A stretch of DNA of 64,000 nt from Spirochaetota bacterium (GTDB lineage Bacteria > Spirochaetota > JAHITG01 > JAFGFC01), in the NCBI GenBank assembly GCA_016931325.1, contig JAFGFC010000071.1:11379-75378 (forward strand). The letters are read 5' to 3'. The notes under the pieces are model-generated. The model did not search any database and was not told where the DNA came from. It saw only the letters and a program-made list of their open reading frames with translations. Position 1 is the stretch's first letter; the number at the start of each line of letters is the position of its first letter. Shown here in pieces: positions 2,181 to 62,871 of the stretch. A program made the translations under genes and the position numbers.

Positions 2181-5100
2181 CTATTTATGTTTCCGGCGGC
2201 TTCTGGTCTTTCGCTTAATGCGTGTCGGTCTCCTGATCCCCCTCTTCCCGAACACAAAAACACAGTTACGGCCTGATTCCTTGGCCTTGTATAGACTCTC
2301 ATCCGCTCGCTCGACAAACTCCAATCTGTTCTCCCCTTCCCCTAATTGCGCCACACCAATACTCAATGTCACATTTAACTCTTCAACCCTTTTCCCCACC
2401 CGGTAGCTCATCTTCAACCCTTCGGCCTCTTTACATAACTTGCCTGCCAGGTTTTCCGCTCCCTCCAGGTCTGTTTCCGGCATAATTACCACAAATTCAT
2501 CCCCTCCATACCGGGCCGCTATATCGCTTTTCCTTACATTCTCCTGGATCAGATCCGTCACCTCGATCAATACCAGATCTCCTGCCTGATGCCCGTAATC
2601 ATCATTGAACCTTTTAAAATGATCAATGTCGATGATCATGAGGCTCAATGCCTTGCCATACCTTAAGGCCTCATCAACGCTTTTTATCAGATAATTGTCA
2701 AAGAAAATCCGGTTGTAAAGTCCAGTCAGCCCGTCCGTGATCGCCCGCTGGTAAAGCCTTGCGTTCTCTATCGAGACTCCGGCCTGACCTGAGATAAGAT
2801 CAAGAACCATCAAATCCTCCTGGCTGAATAGCCCGGTCACCAGACGATTATCCAGATAGATCACACCCAGCATATTTCCACGCGCCATGATCGGCGCACA
2901 GAGAACGCTTTTTAGCCCGTACTTGACCACTGACGACTGCCCTTTCAGTACCGTGTCTGTACCCGCATCTTCCACAATAACCGGCTTTGTCTCTTTTTCC
3001 ACCTTCTCTATTATGCTCTGGCTGGAGATAAATGCTTCTCCCTTCAGCTGCCCCTTCTCCACATTCCTGACCACCCTGATTTCAAGCTCTTTCTTCTTCC
3101 CCCTCTCATCAGGATATAACAACAGTATGCCCCGCTCCGCTCCCACCAGTTCCATGGTCTTGTCCATGATCTTTTCCAACAGCTCGTCCAGGTTGAGTAT
3201 GGATGACAGATATCGGCTCGTGCCCAATACCGTGGTCATCCTCCGCTCCACCTTGAGCCGGTCCTGCGGGCTGACCTCCTCGGTTGCCTCTTTCTCTTCT
3301 TTGAGTCCCAGGGCCTGAGAGCATTCTTTGATATATTTTTTAGCTCCTATGGTTTTGAAAACAGTTAATGCTGTTTCCCGGTTTTTCATGGCTTCTTCTT
3401 TTTTCCCCATTATATCTAAAAAATTGCTGTATTCGTAATAACTTTTAGCCATTTCATATTGACGATATGTATTTTTTAAATGTTTTATACTTTTTTTAAA
3501 ACAATTTTCCGCTTTTGTCTTCTTCTTAATTAAAGCGTAGTATTTACCACATACTCTCCATGTAACACCGTAATGGGCTGGCCAGGCTTTTGTATGCTTG
3601 TGAGATTCTTTACAAATTTTTTTTATCTGTTTCATGTCTCTTTTTAACAAGATCTTATTTTTTGTCCTGGTATCTTCATTATAATATCTCATGATATAGG
3701 AATCAGCCAAATAAGGATACAGGTATACAATATAATCTTTAATAAAATTATTATTAAGATACAGCTCTTTAGCTCTTTCCAATAATTTTATTGCTTCCTG
3801 ATATTTACCCTCTTCATATTTTAAATATCCGTGTACAACGCTGGAAGAACAATATATAAACCAAACTTTGTTTTTTTTACTGACACTCAAAGCCTCTCTT
3901 CCTACTTTGTTCGCTATATCAAAATTTCCCATTTCTATATTAGCTAAAGATATATTGGCCAGTGCTGAACTTTCACCATATACATCTTTTAATCTTCTAC
4001 TGATTTCCAGGTATTGGGTTAAATAATTAACCCCTTTGGCATAATCAGACATTAATCTGTATAAAAGACCAAAACCCTGTATTATCATCCCTAATTCCCA
4101 CATATCCCCCATTCTTTCAAATTTTTCCTGTGCCAGAGTGAAAACCTCAATAGCTTTTGGATATTCTGCCTTCCAGCTATAGCCATATCCCATAAACTGG
4201 AGTGATTGAGCTAATCCCCATTCATCATTCAGTTCTTTCCTTAAAGCTATAGCTTTTTTATGATATTTTATGGATAATTTAAAAATAGGTATAGCCATTA
4301 ATAACGCAGCATATCCTCCAAAAGATATGCCTAATTCCTTTGATTTTCCTATCCTCGATTCTGATATATTTAACATCCTTAATACATTGCAGATAAATTT
4401 ACTAATATCACTTAAAATATACATCCAATTTAACGGGATATTGATCCAGACTATTTCTTTATCTTCTTCTTTGATATTTTTAATTCCCTTGCGTACAAAA
4501 ATAAATGGGAAAAGATTATGCAAAAGATGTGTAATAATTTCTTTTGTCAAAGAAATTATGATTTCTATTTTCTTTCGCGGAATTTTTTCTCCAATTAATA
4601 ATAATCCATTCGCTAAATTGTCCTCACATTTTTCCCAGTCCCCTTTTTTAAAATAAGCCGTTCCTATTTTCCGGTAAATACGGGCTTTTTCAACAGGTTT
4701 TTTCTTTAAATGCAAAAGTTCCCGACATAGATCTATCGCTTCATCATTCCTGCCAATCGTTAGATATACCGCTGATAAACCCTCTTTGGCTTGAATCCAC
4801 TCTTCTTTACCTTTCTTCCCTTTCTTTTCTAACAAGTCTATCCCTATCTGATAATATCTGATCGCATCTTCATTGGCATAGTTTACTTTCGCCTTTTCAG
4901 CTGCCGGGATGACATATTCCAAAGACTTTCGTTTATCTCCTCCTTCTGTATAATGATGTGCCAGCTCAAAGACCACACTCTCAATGTTTTTCTTATTTAA
5001 TTCTTCGATTGCTTTTGCTATTTTTAAATGAAGAGCCTGTCTTCTCTTCTTGCCGATCTTCTGATAAAAAGCATCCCGGATCTTGTCATGCACAAAGATC

Positions 5101-7103
5101 TTCTTCCCCCGTTCCAGACTTTCCTGGATCAGCTGCATGGATATGGCGTCATCCACTATCCTGACAACATCCTCCTTTGGCATCTCTACCAGAGGATACA
5201 GCAGATCGATCTCAAATTCCCTGCCGATAACAGATGACAGATAAAGTATTTCACTCTGCTTCTGGGTGAGATCCTCGATCCGTTTTAAAATAATATCGAT
5301 CATATTGGCTGATACCGGAATCCTGGCTATCCGTTTCCAGTCCGCATCCCAGTACCCTTCCTTCCATATCAGGCCTTTCTCTTCTACCAGTTCTCTCAAA
5401 ATACTTATGGCAAAAAAGGGATTTCCCCTACTTTTTCTCATCACATACCGGGTCAACTCATGGGCTTTGCTCTCCCGTTCACCCAAAAGTGAAGCCACCA
5501 TCCTGTTCATCCTGTCATAAGTAAATGATTTGATAATAATCTCTTCTAAAGCATAACCTCCTGTTTCAGCCTCATTTTTTACCCTGGTTAAACTGTGCTT
5601 TTCATCCACCTCATTATCACGAAAAGCTCCTATGATCAACAGGTTTGAATTTTTTACCTTCCCGGCGATCTCCTCAAGGAGCCTCAAGGTCCCTTCATCC
5701 GCCCATTGCAGATCATCGATATAGATCAGGCAGGCTGTAGTTTCCCCAACCAGATGACAGAAAAAATTGGATGCCACCATTAAAAATCTCTGGTTCTCAC
5801 GTTCCGGATCAAGTTTGACCAGCTGAGGTACTTCGCCCAATACTTCAGACATGTTCCCATTAAGCCGTATCACGATCTCTCCCAGATCCCCCAGAATATT
5901 TTTTATCCTCTTTATCTCTGTTTCTTTTTCTTTCTTCCCTAACCTTTCAAGATGTTTAATATACCCGTTAATCGTGTCCCGGAAAGGCTGATAGGGTGTC
6001 TTGTTCTCCTGGTCCAGACAACGGCCGCCAATGAAAAGCCCGTTCTCTTCATAACAGTAACTCCTCATCTCCTCCAAAAGACGGCTCTTGCCCACTCCCG
6101 GTTCTCCTCCTATCAAACAGACACTCCCCTGACCATCCCTGGCTTTATTAAAAAGCTTTTGCATCCTGGATACTTCTGCTTCCCTGCCCACAAGCCTGGT
6201 CTGATAACTGATCTTTACCTTCTGGTCCTTCTCCCCTATGATAAAACCCCTTTCCCCTTTCTGGAATCTTTGTACATCATATAAAAGCCCCTTGGCGCTC
6301 TGATACCGAAGCTCCGGTTCCTTGAACAACAGTTTCATCACCATCTCTTCCAGTTCACTCGATATCCCGGTCCGCACCTTGCCCGGCTTGGTCGGCATTA
6401 CAGCCACCTGCTGATGAAGCATCTTGCTGGTCTCTTTGGCCCTGAAAGGCAGTTCCCCGGTCAGCAATTGATAAAAGATAATACCCAGTGAATACAGATC
6501 ACTCCGTTCATCTATTCTTTTATTCACGATCCCCGTGGCTTCAGGCGACATGTATCCGAAGGTCCCGACCACTTCTTCCTCCCCTTTCAAATGACCCAGT
6601 TCCATGATAAAGGCCACGCCAAAATCTAAAAGTTTTGTCACATTTCCTTTGCCCTTTTTCACCAGCATAATATTGCCCGGTTTCAGGTCCCTGTGAAGTA
6701 TCCCCCGGCCATGTACATAATCCAGTGCCTCTGTCAGTTGTTTGATAATATCGATCGTTTCTTTTGTTCCAAAACTTTTCTGCTGCTCCAATTTCTCGGA
6801 CAGGCTCTGTCCGGGAATAGATTCCATGACAATGTAAGGAATATTTTTATATTCTCCGCTGGAATAGATCTTTACGATATTGGTATGGCTTAACTGGCTG
6901 ACCGCTTCGATCTCTCTTTTGAACCGGATCACATCTTCAATATAGGATGAGGTCACTCCCTGTTTGAGGAATTTTATGGCCACATCATGCTTTTTTTTTC
7001 TGTCCCTGGCCCGAAAAACAACACTCATTCCCCCTTCGCCGATCTGTTCAAGTATCTGGTATCTCGTATCAATTGTTGCGTTCTTTTTAAATTTCAGTTC
7101 CAT
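2181..7103 (-). CDS. Multidomain signalling protein: N-terminal Ser/Thr protein kinase, AAA/STAND-like NTPase, multiple TPR repeats, GAF domain, C-terminal GGDEF diguanylate cyclase, then a Lys/Arg-rich tail
   Basis: Kinase motifs GEGGMSVVFRA...AIK and HRDLKPGNIML...DFG. Walker A GGEPGVGKSRLLEE. A long TPR-like helical region. GAF-like ELLEKIMDKTMELVGAERGILLL. GGDEF motif RYGGDEFVVIM with an RKSD (RxxD) I-site 5 residues upstream. The tail reads RRPTRIKRKTRSRRKHK. Confidence 0.8.
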   Translation of the reverse strand: MELKFKKNATIDTRYQILEQIGEGGMSVVFRARDRKKKHDVAIKFLKQGVTSSYIEDVIRFKREIEAVSQLSHTNIVKIYSSGEYKNIPYIVMESIPGQSLSEKLEQQKSFGTKETIDIIKQLTEALDYVHGRGILHRDLKPGNIMLVKKGKGNVTKLLDFGVAFIMELGHLKGEEEVVGTFGYMSPEATGIVNKRIDERSDLYSLGIIFYQLLTGELPFRAKETSKMLHQQVAVMPTKPGKVRTGISSELEEMVMKLLFKEPELRYQSAKGLLYDVQRFQKGERGFIIGEKDQKVKISYQTRLVGREAEVSRMQKLFNKARDGQGSVCLIGGEPGVGKSRLLEEMRSYCYEENGLFIGGRCLDQENKTPYQPFRDTINGYIKHLERLGKKEKETEIKRIKNILGDLGEIVIRLNGNMSEVLGEVPQLVKLDPERENQRFLMVASNFFCHLVGETTACLIYIDDLQWADEGTLRLLEEIAGKVKNSNLLIIGAFRDNEVDEKHSLTRVKNEAETGGYALEEIIIKSFTYDRMNRMVASLLGERESKAHELTRYVMRKSRGNPFFAISILRELVEEKGLIWKEGYWDADWKRIARIPVSANMIDIILKRIEDLTQKQSEILYLSSVIGREFEIDLLYPLVEMPKEDVVRIVDDAISMQLIQESLERGKKIFVHDKIRDAFYQKIGKKRRQALHLKIAKAIEELNKKNIESVVFELAHHYTEGGDKRKSLEYVIPAAEKAKVNYANEDAIRYYQIGIDLLEKKGKKGKEEWIQAKEGLSAVYLTIGRNDEAIDLCRELLHLKKKPVEKARIYRKIGTAYFKKGDWEKCEDNLANGLLLIGEKIPRKKIEIIISLTKEIITHLLHNLFPFIFVRKGIKNIKEEDKEIVWINIPLNWMYILSDISKFICNVLRMLNISESRIGKSKELGISFGGYAALLMAIPIFKLSIKYHKKAIALRKELNDEWGLAQSLQFMGYGYSWKAEYPKAIEVFTLAQEKFERMGDMWELGMIIQGFGLLYRLMSDYAKGVNYLTQYLEISRRLKDVYGESSALANISLANIEMGNFDIANKVGREALSVSKKNKVWFIYCSSSVVHGYLKYEEGKYQEAIKLLERAKELYLNNNFIKDYIVYLYPYLADSYIMRYYNEDTRTKNKILLKRDMKQIKKICKESHKHTKAWPAHYGVTWRVCGKYYALIKKKTKAENCFKKSIKHLKNTYRQYEMAKSYYEYSNFLDIMGKKEEAMKNRETALTVFKTIGAKKYIKECSQALGLKEEKEATEEVSPQDRLKVERRMTTVLGTSRYLSSILNLDELLEKIMDKTMELVGAERGILLLYPDERGKKKELEIRVVRNVEKGQLKGEAFISSQSIIEKVEKETKPVIVEDAGTDTVLKGQSSVVKYGLKSVLCAPIMARGNMLGVIYLDNRLVTGLFSQEDLMVLDLISGQAGVSIENARLYQRAITDGLTGLYNRIFFDNYLIKSVDEALRYGKALSLMIIDIDHFKRFNDDYGHQAGDLVLIEVTDLIQENVRKSDIAARYGGDEFVVIMPETDLEGAENLAGKLCKEAEGLKMSYRVGKRVEELNVTLSIGVAQLGEGENRLEFVERADESLYKAKESGRNCVFVFGKRGIRRPTRIKRKTRSRRKHK

Positions 7104-26358: not shown

Positions 26359-28026
26359 TTATTTTTTAACAACAAGCTTGAAAGTAGCCTTTATACTATC
26401 ACCTTCGATAATAACAAGATAAATACCGGCTCCGACTTTCATTCCCTCATCCCCCACCGTTCCATCCCATATCTGGCTGGTATTTTCAACATAGTACTGT
26501 TTATCAAAGGATTTAACCAGATTTCCTGAAAGATTGTAAATATTGATACTGGCCAGTCCACTCTGAGCCAAAAATATCCTGGTTATATCTCCTTTTGAAA
26601 GATCAATGTAATTTGGGTATACACCGGTTTTTAATGAAGAAAAAGCCCAGGGGGGATAATAAACAACATTGGAAGGCAGGGATGTTCCGGCTTTGTTTGT
26701 GGCAATAACCTTATACCAGTATAAATCATTCTCCTTGATACTTTTATCGTGAAAACTTGATACATTGCTGGCACTTGTTCCCAGGGGATAAAAATTTATA
26801 CCATCCGGACTCCGGAAGATCTTGAATCCCCCTTCGTTAATTGTATTATCCTGCCAGTTCAGGTTCACAGAGCCGGATAAAGGAGTAAGAGCAAGTAATG
26901 TCGGGGGATACGGATAAGGCGGCTGAAGATATTTTTCCAGAAAACAATAATTCGTTAAAAAATTGAGTGACTTGTAACCGAGTACATACACGAATCCCTG
27001 ATCATTAACCGCTGTTCCAAAGATATAATGGTCATGCCTGTGATAATCAATGATATTCCCCTGATTATCATATTTCAATGTCAGGCGACTGCCGTTCGTA
27101 TGACCTGTCACATAAAGAAAATTCCAATTATCCAAGGTGATATAAGTAGCCTCATCATCATGCCCTGAATCAAAATCCTTTGACCATATTACATTGCCGT
27201 TCGTTGAATATTTGATCGTATACCAGTCCTTGTTTATTCCATTATATCTATACCCTGTAACGTAAACATAACCGGAATTATCCAAACCTATATCAAAAGC
27301 CTCATCATGTCCTCCGCTGTCATACTGCTGGGTCCATATCGTATTGCCAGATGGATCATATTTGATGGTAAAATAATCCTTGTGTATCCCTGTATCTTTA
27401 ATACCTGTCACATAAATATTGCCGCTGTTATCCACAGCGACAGCACGGGATTCTTCATCTTTACTGATACCCTGATCAAAGGTCTGCGTCCAGATGGTGT
27501 TTCCATTCGTATGATATTTCAGTGTACAAAAATGTCGGTTCAATACAGCCGCAGGTCTGGTATAACCTGTGACATAAATATAACCAGAATTATGATAGGC
27601 TATATCCCAGGCTTCATCATGATTCCCTGCCGTATATCCTCTGATCCAGCCAATATTCCATAAAGGGTCATACTTAATGGTACGCATATTAAAGAGTATT
27701 CCATTCAGGATAAAACCGGCAATATATACATTACTGTGACTGTCAACAACGATCCCATGACAGAAATCGGTATCCCCGCTGTCATATTCCTCCATATGTT
27801 CAATGGTACTGTCAGGATTGATCTTCAGGGTCATAAAATTCGGATTGGAATTATTTTTATCCCCTACAATATAAACATTCCCGGATCGATCAAGCGTAAG
27901 GTCACGACCCCTGGCCGAATCAACGCCATTATAAGACTGTGTCCATACCAGGGCCCATTTACCTTGCAGGGGAACAGAGAAAAGGATCTGAAAAAAAAGG
28001 ATAAGAAAATAAAAATATTTCATCAT
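26359..28026 (-). CDS. Secreted beta-propeller (SBBP repeat) protein with FN3 domain and T9SS-type C-terminal sorting domain
   Basis: Signal peptide. Repeated YxxSGNxIWTQxYD units. FN3-like PPTLLALTPLSGSVNLNWQD...YWYKVIATNKAGTS. C-terminal ...GIYLVIIEGDSIKATFKLVVKK is typical of Por/T9SS CTDs. Confidence 0.65.
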   Translation of the reverse strand: MMKYFYFLILFFQILFSVPLQGKWALVWTQSYNGVDSARGRDLTLDRSGNVYIVGDKNNSNPNFMTLKINPDSTIEHMEEYDSGDTDFCHGIVVDSHSNVYIAGFILNGILFNMRTIKYDPLWNIGWIRGYTAGNHDEAWDIAYHNSGYIYVTGYTRPAAVLNRHFCTLKYHTNGNTIWTQTFDQGISKDEESRAVAVDNSGNIYVTGIKDTGIHKDYFTIKYDPSGNTIWTQQYDSGGHDEAFDIGLDNSGYVYVTGYRYNGINKDWYTIKYSTNGNVIWSKDFDSGHDDEATYITLDNWNFLYVTGHTNGSRLTLKYDNQGNIIDYHRHDHYIFGTAVNDQGFVYVLGYKSLNFLTNYCFLEKYLQPPYPYPPTLLALTPLSGSVNLNWQDNTINEGGFKIFRSPDGINFYPLGTSASNVSSFHDKSIKENDLYWYKVIATNKAGTSLPSNVVYYPPWAFSSLKTGVYPNYIDLSKGDITRIFLAQSGLASINIYNLSGNLVKSFDKQYYVENTSQIWDGTVGDEGMKVGAGIYLVIIEGDSIKATFKLVVKK

Positions 28027-34942: not shown

Positions 34943-37372
34943 ATGAAAACAATAAAGGAAAAACTGGATCAGATCTTTACATTGCCCAATATAGAGAAAG
35001 TGACACTGGTTTCCCTTTCCGTCTATTCCCTGTTCCTGGGCCTCTTATTGGGGTTCATGGTGGTGTCTCTACAGAACCTGACCGGTATCAAGGAGTTGGA
35101 GGACTACAGGCCGGCTACGGTGACAAAGATCTATGATAATGAAGGCCGACTGATCTCCGAATACTTTGAGGAACAGCGTGAAATCGTTTCGTTAAAAGAA
35201 ATACCAGAGCTCTTAACCAAAGCTTTAGTGGCTGTGGAAGATCAGAAATTCTATCAACATAAAGGTATCCACTTCCAGGGTATTGTCCGTGCTTTTGTGG
35301 TCAATATGCTTGCCGGATATATAAAGGAAGGAGGGAGCACCATAACTCAGCAGTTGTCCAAGATCCTTTTTACCACACGAAAAAAAAGTATCTTTCGCAA
35401 GTTGAAAGAAGCCTGGCTGGCTTTCCAGATCGAAAAATTATATACAAAAGAAGAGATCATCGAATTCTATCTGAATCAGGTCTATTTCGGACACGGGGCT
35501 TATGGTGTTGAAGCCGCTTCCCGTTTCTATTTTAATAAGCGTGTATCCGATCTGAATGTGGCAGAATGCGCCCTTCTGGCAGCCCTTCCTGCGGCTCCAA
35601 ATAAATATTCTCCTATCAAGGATCCTGAAACTTCGCAGCAACGTCATAAAAAAGTATTGAACCATATGGTGGAAAGCGGCATTATAGATGAAGAACAGGC
35701 TCAATCGGACTATTATGATTTCTGGATCAATTATCAGGGTAAGATCGTAGCCCCTAATTCGTCTTTCTGGAAGATCAGGGTTGATAATGCTCCTCATTTT
35801 ACCGAGCATGTTCGCCGGATAATGGAAAAACGCTTTGGTGAAAAGATCCTTTATACCGAAGGAATGCGTATCTATACGACACTGAATCTTGATATGCAGA
35901 AAGCCGCGCAGGAAACTTTATGGAAACGCCTCCAGGCCCACAATAACAGATATTATACCCGTATCGAGCAGGTCAATAAAAATTTTGACAAGAATTTTGC
36001 AGACTTGATCTCCCTGATGGGTTTGATCCTTGACAACAAAAAGATCGCTAATTTAAGTACCCATAAAGAATTGAATCGGTTTAATTATTATTTTTCAAAA
36101 GAATCGCTGGAACAATTTGATCTGGCTTCACTTATCTTCGGGCTGGATGATATTCATCGGTTGTTCCGGATCTATCGAACAACGAGATCACAGAAAGTGG
36201 TTCAGGATAAAGTCGAAGGGGCGATCATATCCATTGAACCCTATTCAGGTTATATTAAAGCCATGGTTGGAGGAAGCGAATTCACTCCTGAAAATCAGTA
36301 TAACCGGGCTGTACAGTCTTACAGACAGCCTGGTTCAGCTTTTAAACCTTTTGTTTATATGGCAGCACTTGATACCGGTCGGTTTACCCCTGCTACGACT
36401 TTTACTGACTCACCTGTGGTTTATTTTGACGGGGAAGGCAAAGAATGGATCCCTAACAATTATACAGGCCAGTACTATGGACTGGTAACATTGAGAAAAG
36501 CATTGCAAAAGTCCATTAACATTATCTCCGTTATGCTGGCTGACCAGGTGGAAATCGATAATGTAAGAGAGCTGGCCGCCAAAATGCTGCATATTTATGA
36601 TTATCATGAGATGAAGAAAAATCTGCCTGATGATCTTTCCCTGGCTCTGGGCACCGCAACCGTAACTCCTTTGCAAATGGCCAATGCCTTTGCTATCATA
36701 GCCAATAAAGGGCGTGACGTTATCCCTATTTCCATAAAATACATCAAGGACAGAAACAATAATGTTCTTGTTGATATGCAAAAAGAACTAGCCCGAAAAC
36801 CCCGCAGGCAGATCATCACACCTCAGGTGGCTTTTCTTATAACCGATATGATGAAAAGTGTGCTTAAACCGGGAGGGACCGCCTGGGGAGCCGCTATTGA
36901 AACTGATTTCTGGTTGCCAGCAGCCGGAAAGACCGGCACGACCGACAACTGGAGGGATGCCTGGTTTGCGGGATTTACAGAAAAACTGGCCTCGGTGGTT
37001 TGGGTAGGATTTGATAATTATAGCCGTTCCCTTGGCCTGGGAGAAGAAGGCGGCAAGGTAGCGGCCCCTATCTGGTGCGAATATATGAAAAAAGCCATGA
37101 GGAATTATTACCTGAGTGATTTTGAAGTCCCCCCGGGGATCACCAAAGTGGATATTTGTTTAAGATCAGGCAAATTGGTCTCAAATGATTGCAAAGAACG
37201 CGGTGTTGAATATTTTATTGAAGGGAGCGAACCCTCTCAGGAATGCACCAGTTGTAAAGAAGGATATAAACAGTTTGAATTTGATGAAGAAAAAGTGGAA
37301 AAGATCCTTGACGAAAAGAGAAAAAAACTGAAAGATAAAATATTTAAAGATAAATTCAGGCTCAAGCTTTGA
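34943..37372 (+). CDS. mrcA: Class A penicillin-binding protein 1A (transglycosylase plus transpeptidase)
   Basis: N-terminal TM. GT51 motifs (EDQKFYQHKGI, GGSTITQQL). Transpeptidase SxxK (GSAFKPF), SxN, KTGTT. Confidence 0.85.
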   Translation: MKTIKEKLDQIFTLPNIEKVTLVSLSVYSLFLGLLLGFMVVSLQNLTGIKELEDYRPATVTKIYDNEGRLISEYFEEQREIVSLKEIPELLTKALVAVEDQKFYQHKGIHFQGIVRAFVVNMLAGYIKEGGSTITQQLSKILFTTRKKSIFRKLKEAWLAFQIEKLYTKEEIIEFYLNQVYFGHGAYGVEAASRFYFNKRVSDLNVAECALLAALPAAPNKYSPIKDPETSQQRHKKVLNHMVESGIIDEEQAQSDYYDFWINYQGKIVAPNSSFWKIRVDNAPHFTEHVRRIMEKRFGEKILYTEGMRIYTTLNLDMQKAAQETLWKRLQAHNNRYYTRIEQVNKNFDKNFADLISLMGLILDNKKIANLSTHKELNRFNYYFSKESLEQFDLASLIFGLDDIHRLFRIYRTTRSQKVVQDKVEGAIISIEPYSGYIKAMVGGSEFTPENQYNRAVQSYRQPGSAFKPFVYMAALDTGRFTPATTFTDSPVVYFDGEGKEWIPNNYTGQYYGLVTLRKALQKSINIISVMLADQVEIDNVRELAAKMLHIYDYHEMKKNLPDDLSLALGTATVTPLQMANAFAIIANKGRDVIPISIKYIKDRNNNVLVDMQKELARKPRRQIITPQVAFLITDMMKSVLKPGGTAWGAAIETDFWLPAAGKTGTTDNWRDAWFAGFTEKLASVVWVGFDNYSRSLGLGEEGGKVAAPIWCEYMKKAMRNYYLSDFEVPPGITKVDICLRSGKLVSNDCKERGVEYFIEGSEPSQECTSCKEGYKQFEFDEEKVEKILDEKRKKLKDKIFKDKFRLKL

Positions 37373-37522
37373 CGGATCGTTACTTGAATGTATTTTAAAT
37401 GAATAGTTAAATAAACAATCCGTCAGTTCGAAGTTCTAGGTTCGAAGTTCAAATCTTCTGCCTTGCAATTCGACACTCTGGAATTTCTAAGACCCCTAGA
37501 AATTGCCAAGCAATTCCAAGGG
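37371..37522 (+). repeat. Structured intergenic element, copy 3: long hairpin, four GTTCNAN heptads, nested GGAATT/AATTCC hairpins
   Basis: gacggatcgtt...aacaatccgtc is an 11-bp stem with a 32-nt loop. Heptads agttcga agttcta ggttcga agttcaa (37425-37452). Outer stem ccttgcaatt/aattccaagg encloses ggaatttcta/tagaaattgcc. Confidence 0.5.
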
Positions 37523-37545
37523 ATGCGTCAGGATCAATAAAACTT

Positions 37546-38061
37546 ATGAAATACAGTGAAAATACATTAGAAGAAAAAGCCATAGAACAGGCCCTGGGTC
37601 TCATAGCCACAGCTATCAAGACATCGCCTAAATCAAGAGGATTGAATGCTTTAAAAGTCATCGCTCTTACGGATAAGGAAAAGAACAAACTGGCCAAAAA
37701 AATGAGCACCATTAACAAGCATCCTTTTCCAAGAGATTCTAAAAATATCGAGAAGGCTGATGCCATTATCCTGATCGGGATGAAAACCATGCATATGGGA
37801 CTGAATTGCGGCATGTGCGGTTATAAGGACTGTGCTGACAGTCAGGGGAAAAAAGGTCATTGCATTTTTAATACGATCGATCTGGGAATTGCTCTGGGTT
37901 CAGCTGTATCTACCATTTCTGATCTAAAGATCGATTCCCGTATCATGTATTCAGCCGGTATGACTGCCAGGGATATGGGCCTGTTTCCAAAAGAATATCG
38001 TATTGTAATGGGTATCCCCCTTTCTATTTCGCAGAAGAATATTTTTTTTGACAGAAAATAA
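37546..38061 (+). CDS. DUF2148-like ferredoxin-domain protein (COG4739-type)
   Basis: GLNCGMCGYKDC Cys cluster. About 170 aa. Family assignment is from memory. Confidence 0.45.
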   Translation: MKYSENTLEEKAIEQALGLIATAIKTSPKSRGLNALKVIALTDKEKNKLAKKMSTINKHPFPRDSKNIEKADAIILIGMKTMHMGLNCGMCGYKDCADSQGKKGHCIFNTIDLGIALGSAVSTISDLKIDSRIMYSAGMTARDMGLFPKEYRIVMGIPLSISQKNIFFDRK

Positions 38062-40088: not shown

Positions 40089-40108
40089 ATCTTCCCTCCT
40101 CTTTGTAA

Positions 40109-40126
40109 CCGAGCCTTTAGGCTCGG
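40109..40126. repeat. REP-like palindrome CCGAGCC-TTTA-GGCTCGG, copy 1
   Basis: Perfect 7-bp GC-rich stem. The same element recurs at 46259, 61090 and, degenerate, at 51414. Confidence 0.5.
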
Positions 40127-40141
40127 AAAATATATATCCTT

Positions 40142-41224
40142 TTATTCATCTATGAACTTTTTTTTGAGATCCTCATCTTCAGACAATTCCTCAACGATCT
40201 TTTTGATCTCCTGCTCTCTGGATTTATCCATAACCAGAAGAGCATTTTTACTTTTCACTATAATAAGATTATTAACGCCCAGGGTAACCACCAGGTCACC
40301 GTCACTTACAATAATAGAATTTTTTGTATCCTGTCCTTTCCATAATGATTTTATAATATTTCGATCAGGATCAACACCTGTCACTCTTTCCAAAGCGGTC
40401 CAGGAACCAACATCATCCCAGGTGAATCTGGATTTCAAACACAGGACATTATCCGCATGTTCCATGACCCCATAGTCAATGGATATCCTTGGCAGAGCGT
40501 GGAAAACGTCATGAACAGCCCTGTCTTCTTCGTCCGTGTCCATAACATCCTGAATCTGCATTAATCCCTCAAAAAGTTCCTTCATATGCTTTTCGATCGC
40601 TTCCATAATGGAAGGTATAGTCCATATGAACATACCGCTGTTCCATACAAAATTTCCTTTTTCATTATACATTTTAGCGGTTGCATAATCAGGTTTCTCT
40701 TTAAAGCTTTTAACCTCATAAGCAGGGGTATCATAAGTATCATTGATGATCTCTCCCAGTTCTATATGACCATACCCTGTCGAGATCCTTGTCGGCTGTA
40801 TCCCAAAGGTGATAAGACACCCTGTCTCTTTGGCGATCCTGGAGGCGTTGAAAAGGTCCTTTTGGAAGAGATCCTTCTCTTTTATTGTATGATCAGCCGG
40901 GAGAACAGCCACCACAGACCCGGGAGATCTTTTGTTCACCATGGTAACAGCGAAACCTATGGCTGCGGCCGTATCTTTTGGCATGGGTTCAATGATAAAA
41001 TTTTCATCGGGAAAATCTTTTATAATCGCTTTTATGGGAGGGACAAGATCTTTTCTTGTGGAGATAAAAATATCTTCTGTTTTTACCAGCCCTTCCAGCC
41101 TTTCGATGGTCTCTTCCAGCATGGTCTTTGAACTGACAATAGGTAAAAGCTGTTTTGGCTTTGTAAGACGGCTAAAAGGCCAGAATCTCTCCCCCTTTCC
41201 GCCGGCCAGAATGATAATCTTCAT
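40142..41224 (-). CDS. Mannose-1-phosphate guanylyltransferase-like sugar nucleotidyltransferase
   Basis: MKIIILAGGKGERFWPFSRLTKPKQLL is the G-x-G-T-R-hmm NTP-transferase N-terminus. 360 aa with no cupin domain. Confidence 0.7.
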   Translation of the reverse strand: MKIIILAGGKGERFWPFSRLTKPKQLLPIVSSKTMLEETIERLEGLVKTEDIFISTRKDLVPPIKAIIKDFPDENFIIEPMPKDTAAAIGFAVTMVNKRSPGSVVAVLPADHTIKEKDLFQKDLFNASRIAKETGCLITFGIQPTRISTGYGHIELGEIINDTYDTPAYEVKSFKEKPDYATAKMYNEKGNFVWNSGMFIWTIPSIMEAIEKHMKELFEGLMQIQDVMDTDEEDRAVHDVFHALPRISIDYGVMEHADNVLCLKSRFTWDDVGSWTALERVTGVDPDRNIIKSLWKGQDTKNSIIVSDGDLVVTLGVNNLIIVKSKNALLVMDKSREQEIKKIVEELSEDEDLKKKFIDE

Positions 41225-46175: not shown

Positions 46176-46258
46176 TTGACGTCCTCATGTATAATGAATT
46201 GTATAATTTAACAACAAAAAAGAGAATGTCAAGCCTATTTTTCGTTCATGGTTCATAG

Positions 46259-46306
46259 CCGAGCCTTCAGGCTCGGGGATTATAATTTCCGAACCTTAAG
46301 GTTCGG
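46259..46306. repeat. Two adjacent short palindromes in the divergent promoter region: CCGAGCC-TTCA-GGCTCGG (REP-like copy 2) and CCGAACC-TTAA-GGTTCGG
   Basis: Both are perfect 7-bp stems with 4-nt loops, 12 nt apart. Confidence 0.5.
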
Positions 46307-51392: not shown

Positions 51393-51471
51393 GGGATTTC
51401 GAACTTAACAGGCCCGAGCCTAAAGGCCCGGCTACTATGTTCGGCTATTACAAAATGGAGGTAATTATAAA

Positions 51472-58610: not shown

Positions 58611-58661
58611 ATTACGAATTAAATAGCTTTGAGAAAGCAAGTCAACTCTTTTTAGATTCTC

Positions 58662-59058
58662 GTTCGAGGTTCGACGTGCGACGTCAACGCACAGGAAGTG
58701 CGTTGGGTCAAATCGGCCTGGAAGGCTGAGATTTGACCACGAAGTTCGATGAACAGGATGGTCATCGGATCGGCTCAGTTCCCCTGCAATTCATGGAATT
58801 GCGGGGATTAAATCCCGGAAATAGCCCTGCCATTTCAAGGGACGTAGCATTTCCAGGGTAAAGTCCTTGGAATTGCTACGCAATTCCTAAGGAGTCTTAA
58901 TCCTCGGAATTTCTCGGAGAAATTCCAGAGGGATGAATTGCAGGGGAGAGGATTCGACACTCCTACATCCTGCCCCTAGAAATTTTTTATCGAAAAATTT
59001 CAGGGGTATAGTCCCTGGAATTGTACTTTGGACAATTCCTAGGGATAGGTCGTCGAAC
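58662..59058 (+). repeat. Structured intergenic element, copy 1: GTTCGAN heptads, conserved hairpin module, then five tandem GGAATT/AATTCC-type hairpins, bounded by inverted CGTTCGACG-like ends
   Basis: Left end gttcgag gttcgac gtgcgac. Hairpins caacgcac-aggaa-gtgcgttg and cccctgcaatt-catgg-aattgcgggg. Further hairpins at 58868-58892, 58904-58924, 58975-59006 and 59015-59046. Right end ggtcgtcgaacg. The module is homologous to 62672..62818. Confidence 0.55.
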
Positions 59059-59115
59059 GTATTATTGCTTGACTTTGTTAAAGATTATACTATCTTGAAA
59101 AATCTTTAAATAGAG

Positions 59116-60984: not shown

Positions 60985-61073
60985 GGAGAGGTGCTGGAGT
61001 GGACGATCAGGGCTGCCTGCTAAGCAGTTGTAGGGGTTAAACTCTACCGAGGGTTCGAATCCCTCCCTCTCCG
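60985..61073 (+). tRNA. tRNA-Ser (anticodon GCU), class II
   Basis: Acceptor GGAGAGG/CCTCTCC. Anticodon loop CTGCTAA. Long variable arm GTAG...CTAC. T-loop GGTTCGAATCC. Confidence 0.85.
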
Positions 61074-61089
61074 CATATAATGACTGTAG

Positions 61090-61107
61090 CCGAGCCTTCA
61101 GGCTCGG
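61090..61107. repeat. REP-like palindrome CCGAGCC-TTCA-GGCTCGG, copy 3
   Basis: Identical to the copy at 46259..46276, including the flanking TAG...AAA context. Confidence 0.5.
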
Positions 61108-61124
61108 AAAGTAAGGTAAATATT

Positions 61125-61390: not shown

Positions 61391-61464
61391 GTGCCCATAG
61401 TTCAATTGGATAGAACGCTGGATTGCGGTTCCAGTGGTTAGAGGTTCAAGTCCTCTTGGGCACG
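61391..61464 (+). tRNA. tRNA-Arg (anticodon reads GCG)
   Basis: 74 nt. Acceptor GTGCCCA/TGGGCAC. D-stem GTTC/GAAC. Anticodon stem CTGGA/TCCAG with loop TTGCGGT. T-loop GGTTCAAGTCC. No G3:U70, so not Ala. Confidence 0.75.
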
Positions 61465-61467
61465 CAT

Positions 61468-62667
61468 ATGATCTACAAGTTACAATCTTTAGCCGGTCTT
61501 GTGCTTATTCTGGGACTGGCTTTCCTTCTCTCTACTAATAAAAAATCAATAAAACTGCGTGTTGTTGTATGGGGATTCGCTCTTCAGCTGATCCTGGCCT
61601 TAATTATTCTCAGAACCGATATCGGTTTTTTAATATTTGAGGGGGCCAAAAAAGCGGTGGGTGCCGTTATTAATTACAGCGACAAAGGGGCTGCTTTTGT
61701 TTTTGGAAATCTTGTCTATGATCAGGCTATAGGAGCGGTGATCGCTTTCAGGGTGCTTCCTATCATTATTTTTGTCTCGGCCCTGATGGGTATCCTTTCT
61801 TTTTTTGGTATTATCCAGTTCTTTGTAAAATTGATGGCCCGGCTTATGCAGAGAACCATGAAAATATCCGGAGCGGAATCATTAGGGGCCGCTATGCTTA
61901 TCTTCATGGGCATTGAAAGCAGCACAGGTCTGAAAGAGTATATTAGAAAAATGACCAGATCCGAAATATTTGTTTATATGAGCGCCTTCATGAGCACGAT
62001 CGCCACAAGTGTTATGGCTACTTATGTCAGCTTTGGGGCTCAGGCCGGTCATTTACTGGCAGCCTCTATTATGAGCGCTCCGGCAGCCGTAGCCATCGCC
62101 AAGATCATGATACCTGAAACAGAAAAACCGGACACTCTGGGAAGCAGTAAATTAAAATTAGAAACCAAGCCGTCTAACATCATTGAATCAATGGCTGATG
62201 GCGCTTCAACCGGTGCACACCTGGCTATTCAGATCGGGGCCATGCTTTTAGCGTTTATGGGTATCATCTATCTGATCAATGGCCTGTTAAATTATGCGGG
62301 ATTATCCATGGATAAGATCTTCAGCTATATTTTCTATCCTTTTGCTCTGGCTTTAGGTGTACCCGTAAAAGACGCGTCAGTCGTAGCCTCATTGTTAGGT
62401 ACAAAGACCGTATTTAATGAATTTTTGGCCTATATGAAGCTTCAGCCCCTGATCCAGTCACACGCCATTTCCGCCCGATCTATTGTTATCTCAACTTATG
62501 CCTTATGTGGTTTTGCCAATTTTGGAAGTATTGCGATTCTCATAGGGGGGCTGGCCGGTATCGCCCCGGAGAAAAAAAACATGATTGCTTCCCTGGGGAT
62601 CAAATCTCTGATTGCCGGTACTCTGGCTTCTTTCATGACAGCTATCATTGCGGGGTGGTTGATTTAA
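61468..62667 (+). CDS. nupC: Concentrative nucleoside transporter, NupC family; start trimmed to the ATG just after the tRNA
   Basis: MIYKLQSLAGLVLILGLAFLLS...LRVVVWGFALQLILALIIL is a typical CNT N-terminus. Polytopic, about 400 aa. Confidence 0.75.
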   Translation: MIYKLQSLAGLVLILGLAFLLSTNKKSIKLRVVVWGFALQLILALIILRTDIGFLIFEGAKKAVGAVINYSDKGAAFVFGNLVYDQAIGAVIAFRVLPIIIFVSALMGILSFFGIIQFFVKLMARLMQRTMKISGAESLGAAMLIFMGIESSTGLKEYIRKMTRSEIFVYMSAFMSTIATSVMATYVSFGAQAGHLLAASIMSAPAAVAIAKIMIPETEKPDTLGSSKLKLETKPSNIIESMADGASTGAHLAIQIGAMLLAFMGIIYLINGLLNYAGLSMDKIFSYIFYPFALALGVPVKDASVVASLLGTKTVFNEFLAYMKLQPLIQSHAISARSIVISTYALCGFANFGSIAILIGGLAGIAPEKKNMIASLGIKSLIAGTLASFMTAIIAGWLI

Positions 62668-62671
62668 TATG

Positions 62672-62818
62672 GTTCGACGCGCGACGTTCGAGGTTCGAAG
62701 TTCGACACACAGGAAGTGTGTCGGGTCGAATCCCTCCCCTGCAATTTGGAAAATTGCGGGGATCAAATCCCGGAAATGCTTCGCATTTCACAGGACATGG
62801 ATGGTTGGGATTCGACCA
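62672..62818 (+). repeat. Structured intergenic element, copy 2 (compact): five GTTCGAN heptads followed by a multi-stem module
   Basis: Heptads gttcgac gcgcgac gttcgag gttcgaa gttcgac. Hairpin cgacacac-aggaa-gtgtgtcg. Outer stem gggtcgaatccc/gggattcgacc encloses cccctgcaatt-tggaa-aattgcgggg and gaaatgc-ttc-gcatttc. Confidence 0.55.
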
Positions 62819-62871
62819 CTTTGTTTAATGATATAAGCAATTAACTATCTTTTATCTTATGGATAATAAAA

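Follow-up and report, generated by a model that had tools for sequence, protein, structure and literature searches.

In a 64,000-nucleotide stretch of a Spirochaetota genome (assembly GCA_016931325.1, contig JAFGFC010000071.1, positions 11,379 to 75,378 of the forward strand; hereafter the window, with a G+C content of 39.7%), we examined the intergenic spacer between two genes on the + strand. Upstream is mrcA (34943–37372), which encodes the class A penicillin-binding protein PBP1A with Transgly and Transpeptidase domains, and downstream is a gene for a DUF2148 ferredoxin-domain protein (37546–38061), whose product is identical to NCBI JW827_04625 from a 'Spirochaetes bacterium' metagenome-assembled genome (MAG). 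The spacer (37373–37545) is 173 bp long, rather than the 174 bp given in an initial annotation, and its open reading frames (ORFs) extend to 25–28 amino acids at most. An AGGA Shine-Dalgarno-like motif (37530–37548, + strand), unpaired in the predicted fold, is located 12 nt 5' of the DUF2148 ATG (37546). The body of the spacer consists of four tandem heptads and a set of palindromes that are related in sequence to elements at two other positions in the window, near 58.6 kb and 62.7 kb. We interpret the element as belonging to a new family within an ordinary class of bacterial repeats, and not as a conserved regulator, and describe here its anatomy, its relatives and the alternatives to this interpretation.

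The proposal that the spacer holds a third copy of a heptad-plus-hairpin element is borne out by the sharing of 10-mers, by a profile of the palindromic units and by the heptad pattern. Nineteen 10-mer positions of the spacer recur at the other two loci (shuffle mean 0.42, maximum 6, with none of 2000 shuffles reaching 19), and other intergenic regions of the window share 0–6, so that the kinship exceeds a common architecture. When all intergenic regions are compared with each other, the spacer has nine matches with E<1, seven of which are to 58641–59115 and 62668–62860; the remaining two are single chance-level 10-mers (E 0.78). Among those seven are a stretch of 18 nt at 94% identity, exact matches of 13, 13 and 12 nt, and ATTCGACACTC, and at least five short exact matches connect the spacer with the 58.6-kb locus. 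A leave-one-out profile built from the eight units of the other two loci recognizes 37493–37521 at E=2.2e-4, the sole significant outside match in the 64 kb. A three-heptad pattern, GTTCNANGTTCNANGTTCNA, with up to one mismatch has four matches (37426/37433, 58662 and 62686), all on the + strand, against 0.02 expected from shuffles. Units and heptads are confined to the three loci within the window, and none of the 10 units lies within a gene. An alternative, that A+T-rich palindromes gave rise to the likeness by chance or that it is an artefact of assembly, draws on the shortness of the single matches (11–18 nt, E 0.003–0.8), but the sharing is far above chance by all three measures, so that the refutation named in the initial annotation fails, and the spacer is reproduced base for base by an independent Logan assembly of run SRR13394437, which rules out an artefact of MAG assembly. 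This explanation has practically no chance of being right and is already refuted. The Logan sequence is carried on two contigs that overlap by 24 nt within a unit, one stopping at 37509 and the other beginning at 37486, and the break is at most a hint of many genomic copies.

A long hairpin (37370–37425, + strand) starts at the PBP1A stop codon itself and is present as first described, with an 11-bp stem and a 32-nt loop. Its left arm, TGACGGATCGTT (37370–37381), includes the TGA stop and pairs with AACAATCCGTCA (37414–37425) to give 11 pairs and one C/A mismatch around an A+T-rich loop, with a predicted energy of -14.3 kcal/mol (z=-2.9; 3 of 200 shuffles are equally stable). The hairpin is unique in the window, other intergenic DNA giving a single chance-level 10-nt match (E 0.18), and it has no counterpart at the 58.6-kb and 62.7-kb loci. 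It is lineage-specific, as is the rest of the spacer, and it is a candidate member of the repeat rather than an assigned one. The four tandem heptads, AGTTCGA AGTTCTA GGTTCGA AGTTCAA (37425–37452, + strand; consensus RGTTCNA), are likewise as reported, and form the left end of the repeat, with 94% identity over 18 nt to 62686–62703.

GGAATT-type palindromes occupy 37459–37524. The left part is a degenerate palindromic unit (37461–37491, + strand) with a weak profile match (E about 0.6–1.1); it includes the sequence ATTCGACACTC, identical to 58952–58962, and positions 37467–37485 (ATTCGACACTCTGGAATTT) resemble by eye (15/19) the last heptad, left arm and loop of a hairpin with an AGGAA loop at 62699–62717. 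The right part is a well-preserved unit (37492–37524, - strand) forming the hairpin CCCTAGAAATTGC-CAA-GCAATTCCAAGGG, with arms at 37494–37506 and 37510–37522 and exact matches of 13 nt and 12 nt to 58865–58877 and 58973–58984. The nested hairpin pair originally drawn here (37461–37470 with 37512–37521, around 37480–37489 with 37496–37506) is the minimum-energy fold of 37453–37530 taken alone (-14.2 kcal/mol), but an alternative wins in the full spacer, in which the heptads pair with 37470–37490 and a separate hairpin forms at 37494–37522. Because all of the arms belong to one family (core GRAATT/AATTYC), the exact pairing is ambiguous and several arrangements are near-equivalent. The fold of the whole spacer is modestly better than that of shuffles and is alike on both strands (z=-2.5 and -2.5), as expected of DNA palindromes.

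The 37.4-kb copy is the smallest and most degenerate of the three in the window. Besides its heptads it retains a remnant of the next module and two units, of which one is degenerate and the other good; the order of these units is the reverse of the usual doublet. The AGGAA-loop hairpin, a closing stem and the standard inverted doublet, all of which are found among the other two loci, are missing. The suggestion that the three loci have the same architecture thus needs narrowing: heptads are followed by GGAATT-type hairpins at each, and these are related in sequence, but there is no common overall fold, the fold z-score at 37.4 kb being -2.5 compared with -5 to -12 at the other loci.

The largest copy (58661–59060, about 400 nt, + strand) lies between dinB (- strand) and a gene for a SurA-like protein (+ strand). 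It opens with three heptads (58661–58681), the AGGAA-loop hairpin (58685–58705) and a further hairpin (58706–58738), and contains six units, at 58779–58809 (-), 58811–58843 (+), 58862–58894 (+), 58899–58933 (+), 58971–59007 (-) and 59010–59047 (+), so that the cluster combines units in both orientations with recurrent non-unit modules (heptads, AGGAA hairpin and ATTCGACACTC). Its end, CGTCGAACG, is inverted relative to its heptads, a promoter-like TTGAGA-18-TAGATT stops 3 nt 5' of the heptads at 58661, and the locus folds strongly on the two strands (z=-11.3 and -12.1). The compact copy (62671–62817, + strand) begins 4 nt past the stop codon of a nucleoside-transporter gene, and has five heptads (62671–62705), an AGGAA-loop hairpin of 8 bp (62703–62723) and an 11-bp closing stem (62723–62734 with 62807–62817) around one doublet of units (62734–62763, -, and 62766–62796, +). 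A T-rich tail lies 3' of the closing stem, where there is a terminator-like site (62802–62818) of a stem plus CTTTGTTT, and the fold z-scores for the two strands are -4.9 and -8.0. The AGGAA hairpins of the two loci differ by two compensatory pair changes, and the loop is kept. We also noted that 13 nt of the 62.7-kb element (TCGAATCCCTCCC, 62726–62738) are shared exactly with the T-arm and the 3' side of the acceptor of tRNA-Ser(GCT) (61055–61067), located 1.7 kb upstream, and that the heptad GGTTCGA equals the universal T-arm core. A tRNA-derived origin was considered because of the 13-nt identity, but the element gives no tRNA-like Rfam score, and the identity stands as an observation.

The palindromic units are imperfect palindromes of 31–38 nt. 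Their foot is (T)CCC(C)...GGG(G) and their core GRAAT...ATTYC, and a single additional base at a fixed position of the 3' arm forms a bulge. Twenty units, some from the window and the others from four metagenome contigs, can be aligned to a single hairpin, in which 6 of the 12 stem pairs have double compensatory changes. Eight inverted doublets, with the halves 1–2 nt apart, are present in the window (58779–58843, 58971–59047 and 62734–62796) and in contigs L221, L226 and L228, and one metagenome doublet junction is identical to that of the window (CAGGGGTATAGTCCC). The metagenome scan, for which the query was the pattern of the hairpin from the 37.4-kb copy, returned 38 stretches, mostly singletons, where about 30 were expected (an estimate from information content that assumes a collection size). 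Contigs L214, L221, L226 and L228 are true clusters of the same units, placed between housekeeping genes such as those for Thi4, 5-FTHF cyclo-ligase, MscS and Band 7, and no heptads are present in the clusters of these four. For the UppP protein of L228, the best relatives with a name belong to Candidatus Omnitrophota (62–65% identity), a faint pointer that the unit family probably extends beyond a single lineage. Two of these contigs also share the ends of their clusters. An identical 20-nt stretch of an end hairpin (ATAGGCGCTTCGCGCACTAT) is found at L214 464–483 and L228 10725–10744, in contigs that differ in G+C, together with a second shared end hairpin (GRAAACTTTCAGTTTCC); these identical ends surround three units in L214 and two in L228, and the elements are therefore mosaics in which the ends are conserved and the unit count varies. 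Neither end hairpin is present in the window.

Further copies were sought in several other ways. A scan of genome contigs gave one distant relative only, a metagenome scan with a 22-mer (AATTGCGGGGATNAAATCCCGG) gave no matches, and scans of viral contigs with two hairpin patterns also gave none. A protein search with the translated element, for copies annotated as spurious ORFs, yielded no candidates, and look-ups of the window proteins led to short Logan contigs of the same sample only. A second, unrelated hairpin family, (G/A)TA(G/A)CCGRGCC-TTYA-GGCTCGG, is present in the window at 40104–40132, 46254–46282, 51413–51434 (reverse strand) and 61085–61113. It has GTAG, ATAG or GTAA 5' of it and no T-run 3', and resembles the classical GTAG-type repetitive extragenic palindromic (REP) sequence; at 46.25 kb it adjoins a neighbouring hairpin at 46288–46306.

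Comparison of the gene junction in relatives indicates that the spacer was inserted into an ancestral, tightly linked PBP1A–DUF2148 gene pair. Three contigs whose DUF2148 proteins are related to that of the window retain the gene order, and the distances from the PBP1A stop to the DUF2148 start are 12 nt in the closest (L002, 71% amino acid identity), 10 nt in L087 (68%) and 27 nt in L083 (62%). No heptads or units were found in about 60 kb of the relatives' DNA (26–32% G+C). Since these junctions are 10–27 nt, the 173-nt spacer is a lineage-specific insertion into an operon-like junction. The suggested function as a 3'-UTR structure of mrcA or a 5' leader of the DUF2148 gene, taken as that of a conserved element, does not hold up against the three syntenic relatives. 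Two further contigs (L085 and L086) were considered as empty sites and dropped, as their upstream ORF differs from PBP1A.

On these grounds we think it reasonably probable that the spacer is a non-autonomous, non-coding mosaic repeat of the REP and bacterial interspersed mosaic element (BIME) kind, which was inserted into the operon junction and is co-transcribed as a structured spacer. The comparisons establish the membership of the family, the insertion, the conservation of the hairpin, the doublet habit and the occurrence in other uncultured bacteria. Two types of module make up the element, an RGTTCNA array, located on the + strand and at the left end in every copy, and one or more palindromic units. 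The bulged hairpins, compensatory changes, inverted doublets and occurrence elsewhere without heptads make the units similar to REPs and to REPINs (REP doublets forming hairpins), arranged in BIME-like mosaics. In Enterobacteria and Pseudomonas the corresponding elements are likewise imperfect palindromes of this length with a G+C-rich foot and a conserved bulge, are extragenic and lie between or after housekeeping genes, occur as inverted pairs and as clusters in both orientations with compensatory changes, and are present or absent at a locus between related genomes. The elements described here differ in that no REP-associated tyrosine transposase (RAYT) gene is seen near the units, the 5' flank is WNAG/ATCC instead of GTAG, and a heptad array and other hairpins serve as end modules of the clusters; the gap between doublet halves is also much shorter than in Pseudomonas REPINs, and the host is an uncultured bacterium with a Spirochaetes-labelled MAG, with probable Omnitrophota contigs carrying units too. 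Pneumococcal BOX elements, organized as boxA-boxB(n)-boxC, and the Neisseria intergenic mosaic elements are also modular. The present elements resemble both in having conserved end modules and variable internal modules, and in being non-coding, intergenic and structured; there is no sequence similarity, and the modules here, known from sequence alone, are hairpin units and a 7-nt array.

REPINs consist of two inverted REPs and are mobilised by RAYTs (PMC3337134, PMC3116915). A plausible route of spread for the present element would be as single-stranded hairpin DNA, mobilised in trans in REPIN/RAYT style by a transposase encoded elsewhere, or alternatively by recombination between copies. At 37.4 kb the element would be transcribed together with mrcA and the DUF2148 gene, because there is no terminator and the promoter-like match is weak. 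The stem-loops may then act at most as a passive structured spacer that uncouples the translation of mrcA from that of the DUF2148 gene. REPs can stabilise the mRNA upstream of them, and by analogy the stem-loops could shield the mrcA 3' end from exonucleases.

Several observations weigh against a REP/BIME-like origin. The three loci examined all lie within the 64-kb window, so that a high copy number is an extrapolation, and no transposase of the RAYT or IS200/IS605 type was seen near the units in the window or the four metagenome contigs. The classical REP 5' GTAG is missing, the 5' flanks before TCCC being TATAG, TTAAG, TAAAG, TTAAA and similar, and the 37.4-kb copy lacks the standard inverted doublet, one of its two units being degenerate. 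Why heptads and units go together is not accounted for, as relatives have units but no heptads. The heptads are at the left end and co-directional with the downstream gene in all three copies, which a purely selfish insertion would not predict, but this argument from placement rests on three cases, which prove nothing. No convincing target-site duplication or terminal inverted repeat marks the ends. With respect to the features of a miniature inverted-repeat transposable element, the 58.6-kb locus has a CGTTCGA...TCGAACG inverted pair of 7–9 nt, the 11-bp closing stem at 62.7 kb lies inside the heptads, and the 37.4-kb copy is without a terminal inverted repeat; candidate direct repeats are at chance level. 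A 9-nt direct repeat, ATSCGTCAG, flanking 37426–37522 was considered as a target-site duplication and rejected, since by our own estimate it is at chance level.

One variant of this interpretation joins heptads and units in a single composite, non-autonomous element with the array as a functional end, either a site that the mobilising enzyme recognises or generates, or a platform for a heptad-reading protein through which the element would have a polar effect on the downstream gene. We hold this to be unlikely; were it correct, the unit family would be common to phyla, represented by a Spirochaetes-labelled MAG and Omnitrophota-like contigs, and would point to an undescribed REPIN-like system with its own transposase. 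It seems to us equally doubtful that the three loci share a cis-regulatory module, in which the heptads would be a protein platform, the hairpins would modulate access, and a small regulon would include the DUF2148 gene, the SurA-like gene and the downstream genes. Candidate readers of the heptads would be an omega-type ribbon-helix-helix repressor acting on DNA, or a cold-shock-domain, S1 or CsrA-type protein acting on mRNA. The omega repressor of pSM19035 reads arrays of WATCACW on double-stranded DNA, and a protein can thus read a 7-bp period. The contiguous 7-bp array is the point of resemblance, as an analogy only, and the present arrays have another unit sequence, a chromosomal intercistronic context and no ribbon-helix-helix gene nearby. 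The preservation of the AGGAA loop through two compensatory stem changes (58685–58705 compared with 62703–62723) is what a regulatory module would lead one to expect, and there are many GGA motifs in or at predicted loops; a faint match to CsrB (E=3.7) is at chance level, and a CsrB-like sponge RNA, for which GGA-rich loops and this match were the only basis, was rejected. TAACTGA heptamers upstream of start codons, for which RNA-binding regulators have been suggested (PMC4679880), provide an analogue. A regulatory module is, however, difficult to reconcile with distances from heptads to start codon of 93, about 455 and about 155–170 nt, with the 1 to 6 units that intervene, with the three relatives that have no spacer at the same junction, or with the absence of the AGGAA hairpin from the 37.4-kb copy, and the downstream genes have no evident functional link. 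Two permuted control heptads occur in 40 and 72 viral stretches, compared with at least 80 for GTTCGAN.

Transcription may also provide an explanation, in that the spacer could be a selected terminator or 3'-end stabiliser of mrcA that splits a former operon, with the DUF2148 gene being read from a promoter in the spacer. The first stem begins at the stop codon itself, a weak promoter-like TTGACG-16-TATTTT (9/12) is present at 37369–37396, the 62.7-kb copy ends with a terminator-like stem plus CTTTGTTT, and stabilisation of upstream mRNA is a known effect of REPs. We regard this as quite improbable nonetheless: no T-run lies 3' of any stem in 37373–37545 and a terminator scan finds no site there, counter to the terminator function first proposed for mrcA; promoter-like matches are at the level of shuffles (4 found compared with 3.2); and at 58.6 kb the same repeat lies in a divergent promoter region, where a terminator would be senseless. 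It is very unlikely that the three loci encode a family of structured small RNAs whose 5' end is formed by the heptads. The two larger copies do have very stable folds (z=-11, and z=-5 to -8), the promoter-like TTGAGA-18-TAGATT is positioned 3 nt 5' of the heptads at 58661, and the stems carry compensatory changes; both strands fold equally well, however, the copies differ about fourfold in length and module content, units occur in both orientations within a single locus, and the 37.4-kb copy folds only slightly better than shuffles (z=-2.5). Rfam provides no match, with a scan of the window at gathering thresholds reporting only tRNAs and E-value scans of the three loci giving chance-level matches only, and insertion between operon genes is typical of repeats rather than of RNA genes.

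Insertion of repeat DNA accounts for this odd structured spacer, and to annotate it as a riboswitch, a leader or a terminator belonging to mrcA or the DUF2148 gene would be unwarranted. The units form a REP/REPIN-like family from uncultured lineages that have been little studied. The consensus is clear, the bulge is fixed in position and inverted doublets recur, and the family could guide a search for its transposase and mark strain-level variation. The fusion of units with heptads is unusual, although it rests on three cases.

Among long simple repeats, those with a 7-nt unit are the most over-represented in many prokaryotic genomes. They are mostly intergenic and of unknown function, examples being TAACTGA in Beggiatoaceae and cyanobacteria, GGGAATC in Xanthomonas and GGGGAYT in Nostoc (PMC4679880, PMC4692102). 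With four heptads at 37425–37452, three at 58661–58681 and five at 62671–62705, each array in the window has the three or more units by which a heptameric simple repeat is defined. The arrays resemble these families and the Calothrix STRR sequences in consisting of 3–5 head-to-tail 7-nt units, with one unit present at several intergenic loci of one genome and arrays often a short way past the upstream ORF (by 4 and 52 nt in the window). They differ in the unit, RGTTCNA, with a self-complementary core TTCGAA/TCGA, and in that each of the three arrays is fused to palindromic units, which is unreported for those families. Arrays of GTTCGAN occur in at least 80 stretches of viral contigs, some contigs having several, and their orientation relative to genes is mixed among those inspected. 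As the permuted heptads are about as common, the abundance of GTTCGAN is no evidence of a special shared function, and heptad arrays need no special function to exist; GTTCGAN was accordingly dropped as a special cross-phylum motif. A literature search for GTTCGAN array strings found no paper in the library searched.

Two groups of viral arrays are worth recording. The 40-kb viral contig IMGVR_UViG_3300012347_000612 (about 60% G+C; L006, L018, L024, L039, L073 and L080) contains more than 15 GTTCGAY arrays, often as divergent pairs around 30-nt pyrimidine-rich spacers and adjoining gene starts, and these look like a phage-wide operator or promoter-associated repeat. In a group of phage contigs of 43–50% G+C (L040 6140–6369, and similarly L041, L067 and L082), (TCGAACC)3 is located 7 nt 5' of a start codon without a Shine-Dalgarno sequence; it lies 3' of a near-consensus TTGACA-17-TAATAT promoter that is overlapped by a GGAATAT...ATATTCC hairpin.

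Four minor features elsewhere in the window were also noted. ARAGORN predicts a 96-nt tRNA-Arg(TCG) at 40972–41067, inside a 360-amino acid ORF (40142–41224, - strand), which is probably a false positive because Rfam gives no confirmation. The nucleoside-transporter ORF (61423–62667, with a TTG start) overlaps the 3' part of tRNA-Arg(GCG) (61391–61465) by about 43 nt, and its true start is probably further downstream. A 555-amino acid ORF (26359–28026, - strand) contains, at 27099–27620, four copies of a 60-nt segment that are 150–162 nt apart and 62–72% identical, and the predicted protein is internally repetitive. Finally, a 51-nt near-perfect palindrome (90%) is present at 2065–2115, in the 195-nt gap between the minus-strand genes 417–1985 and 2181–7103.

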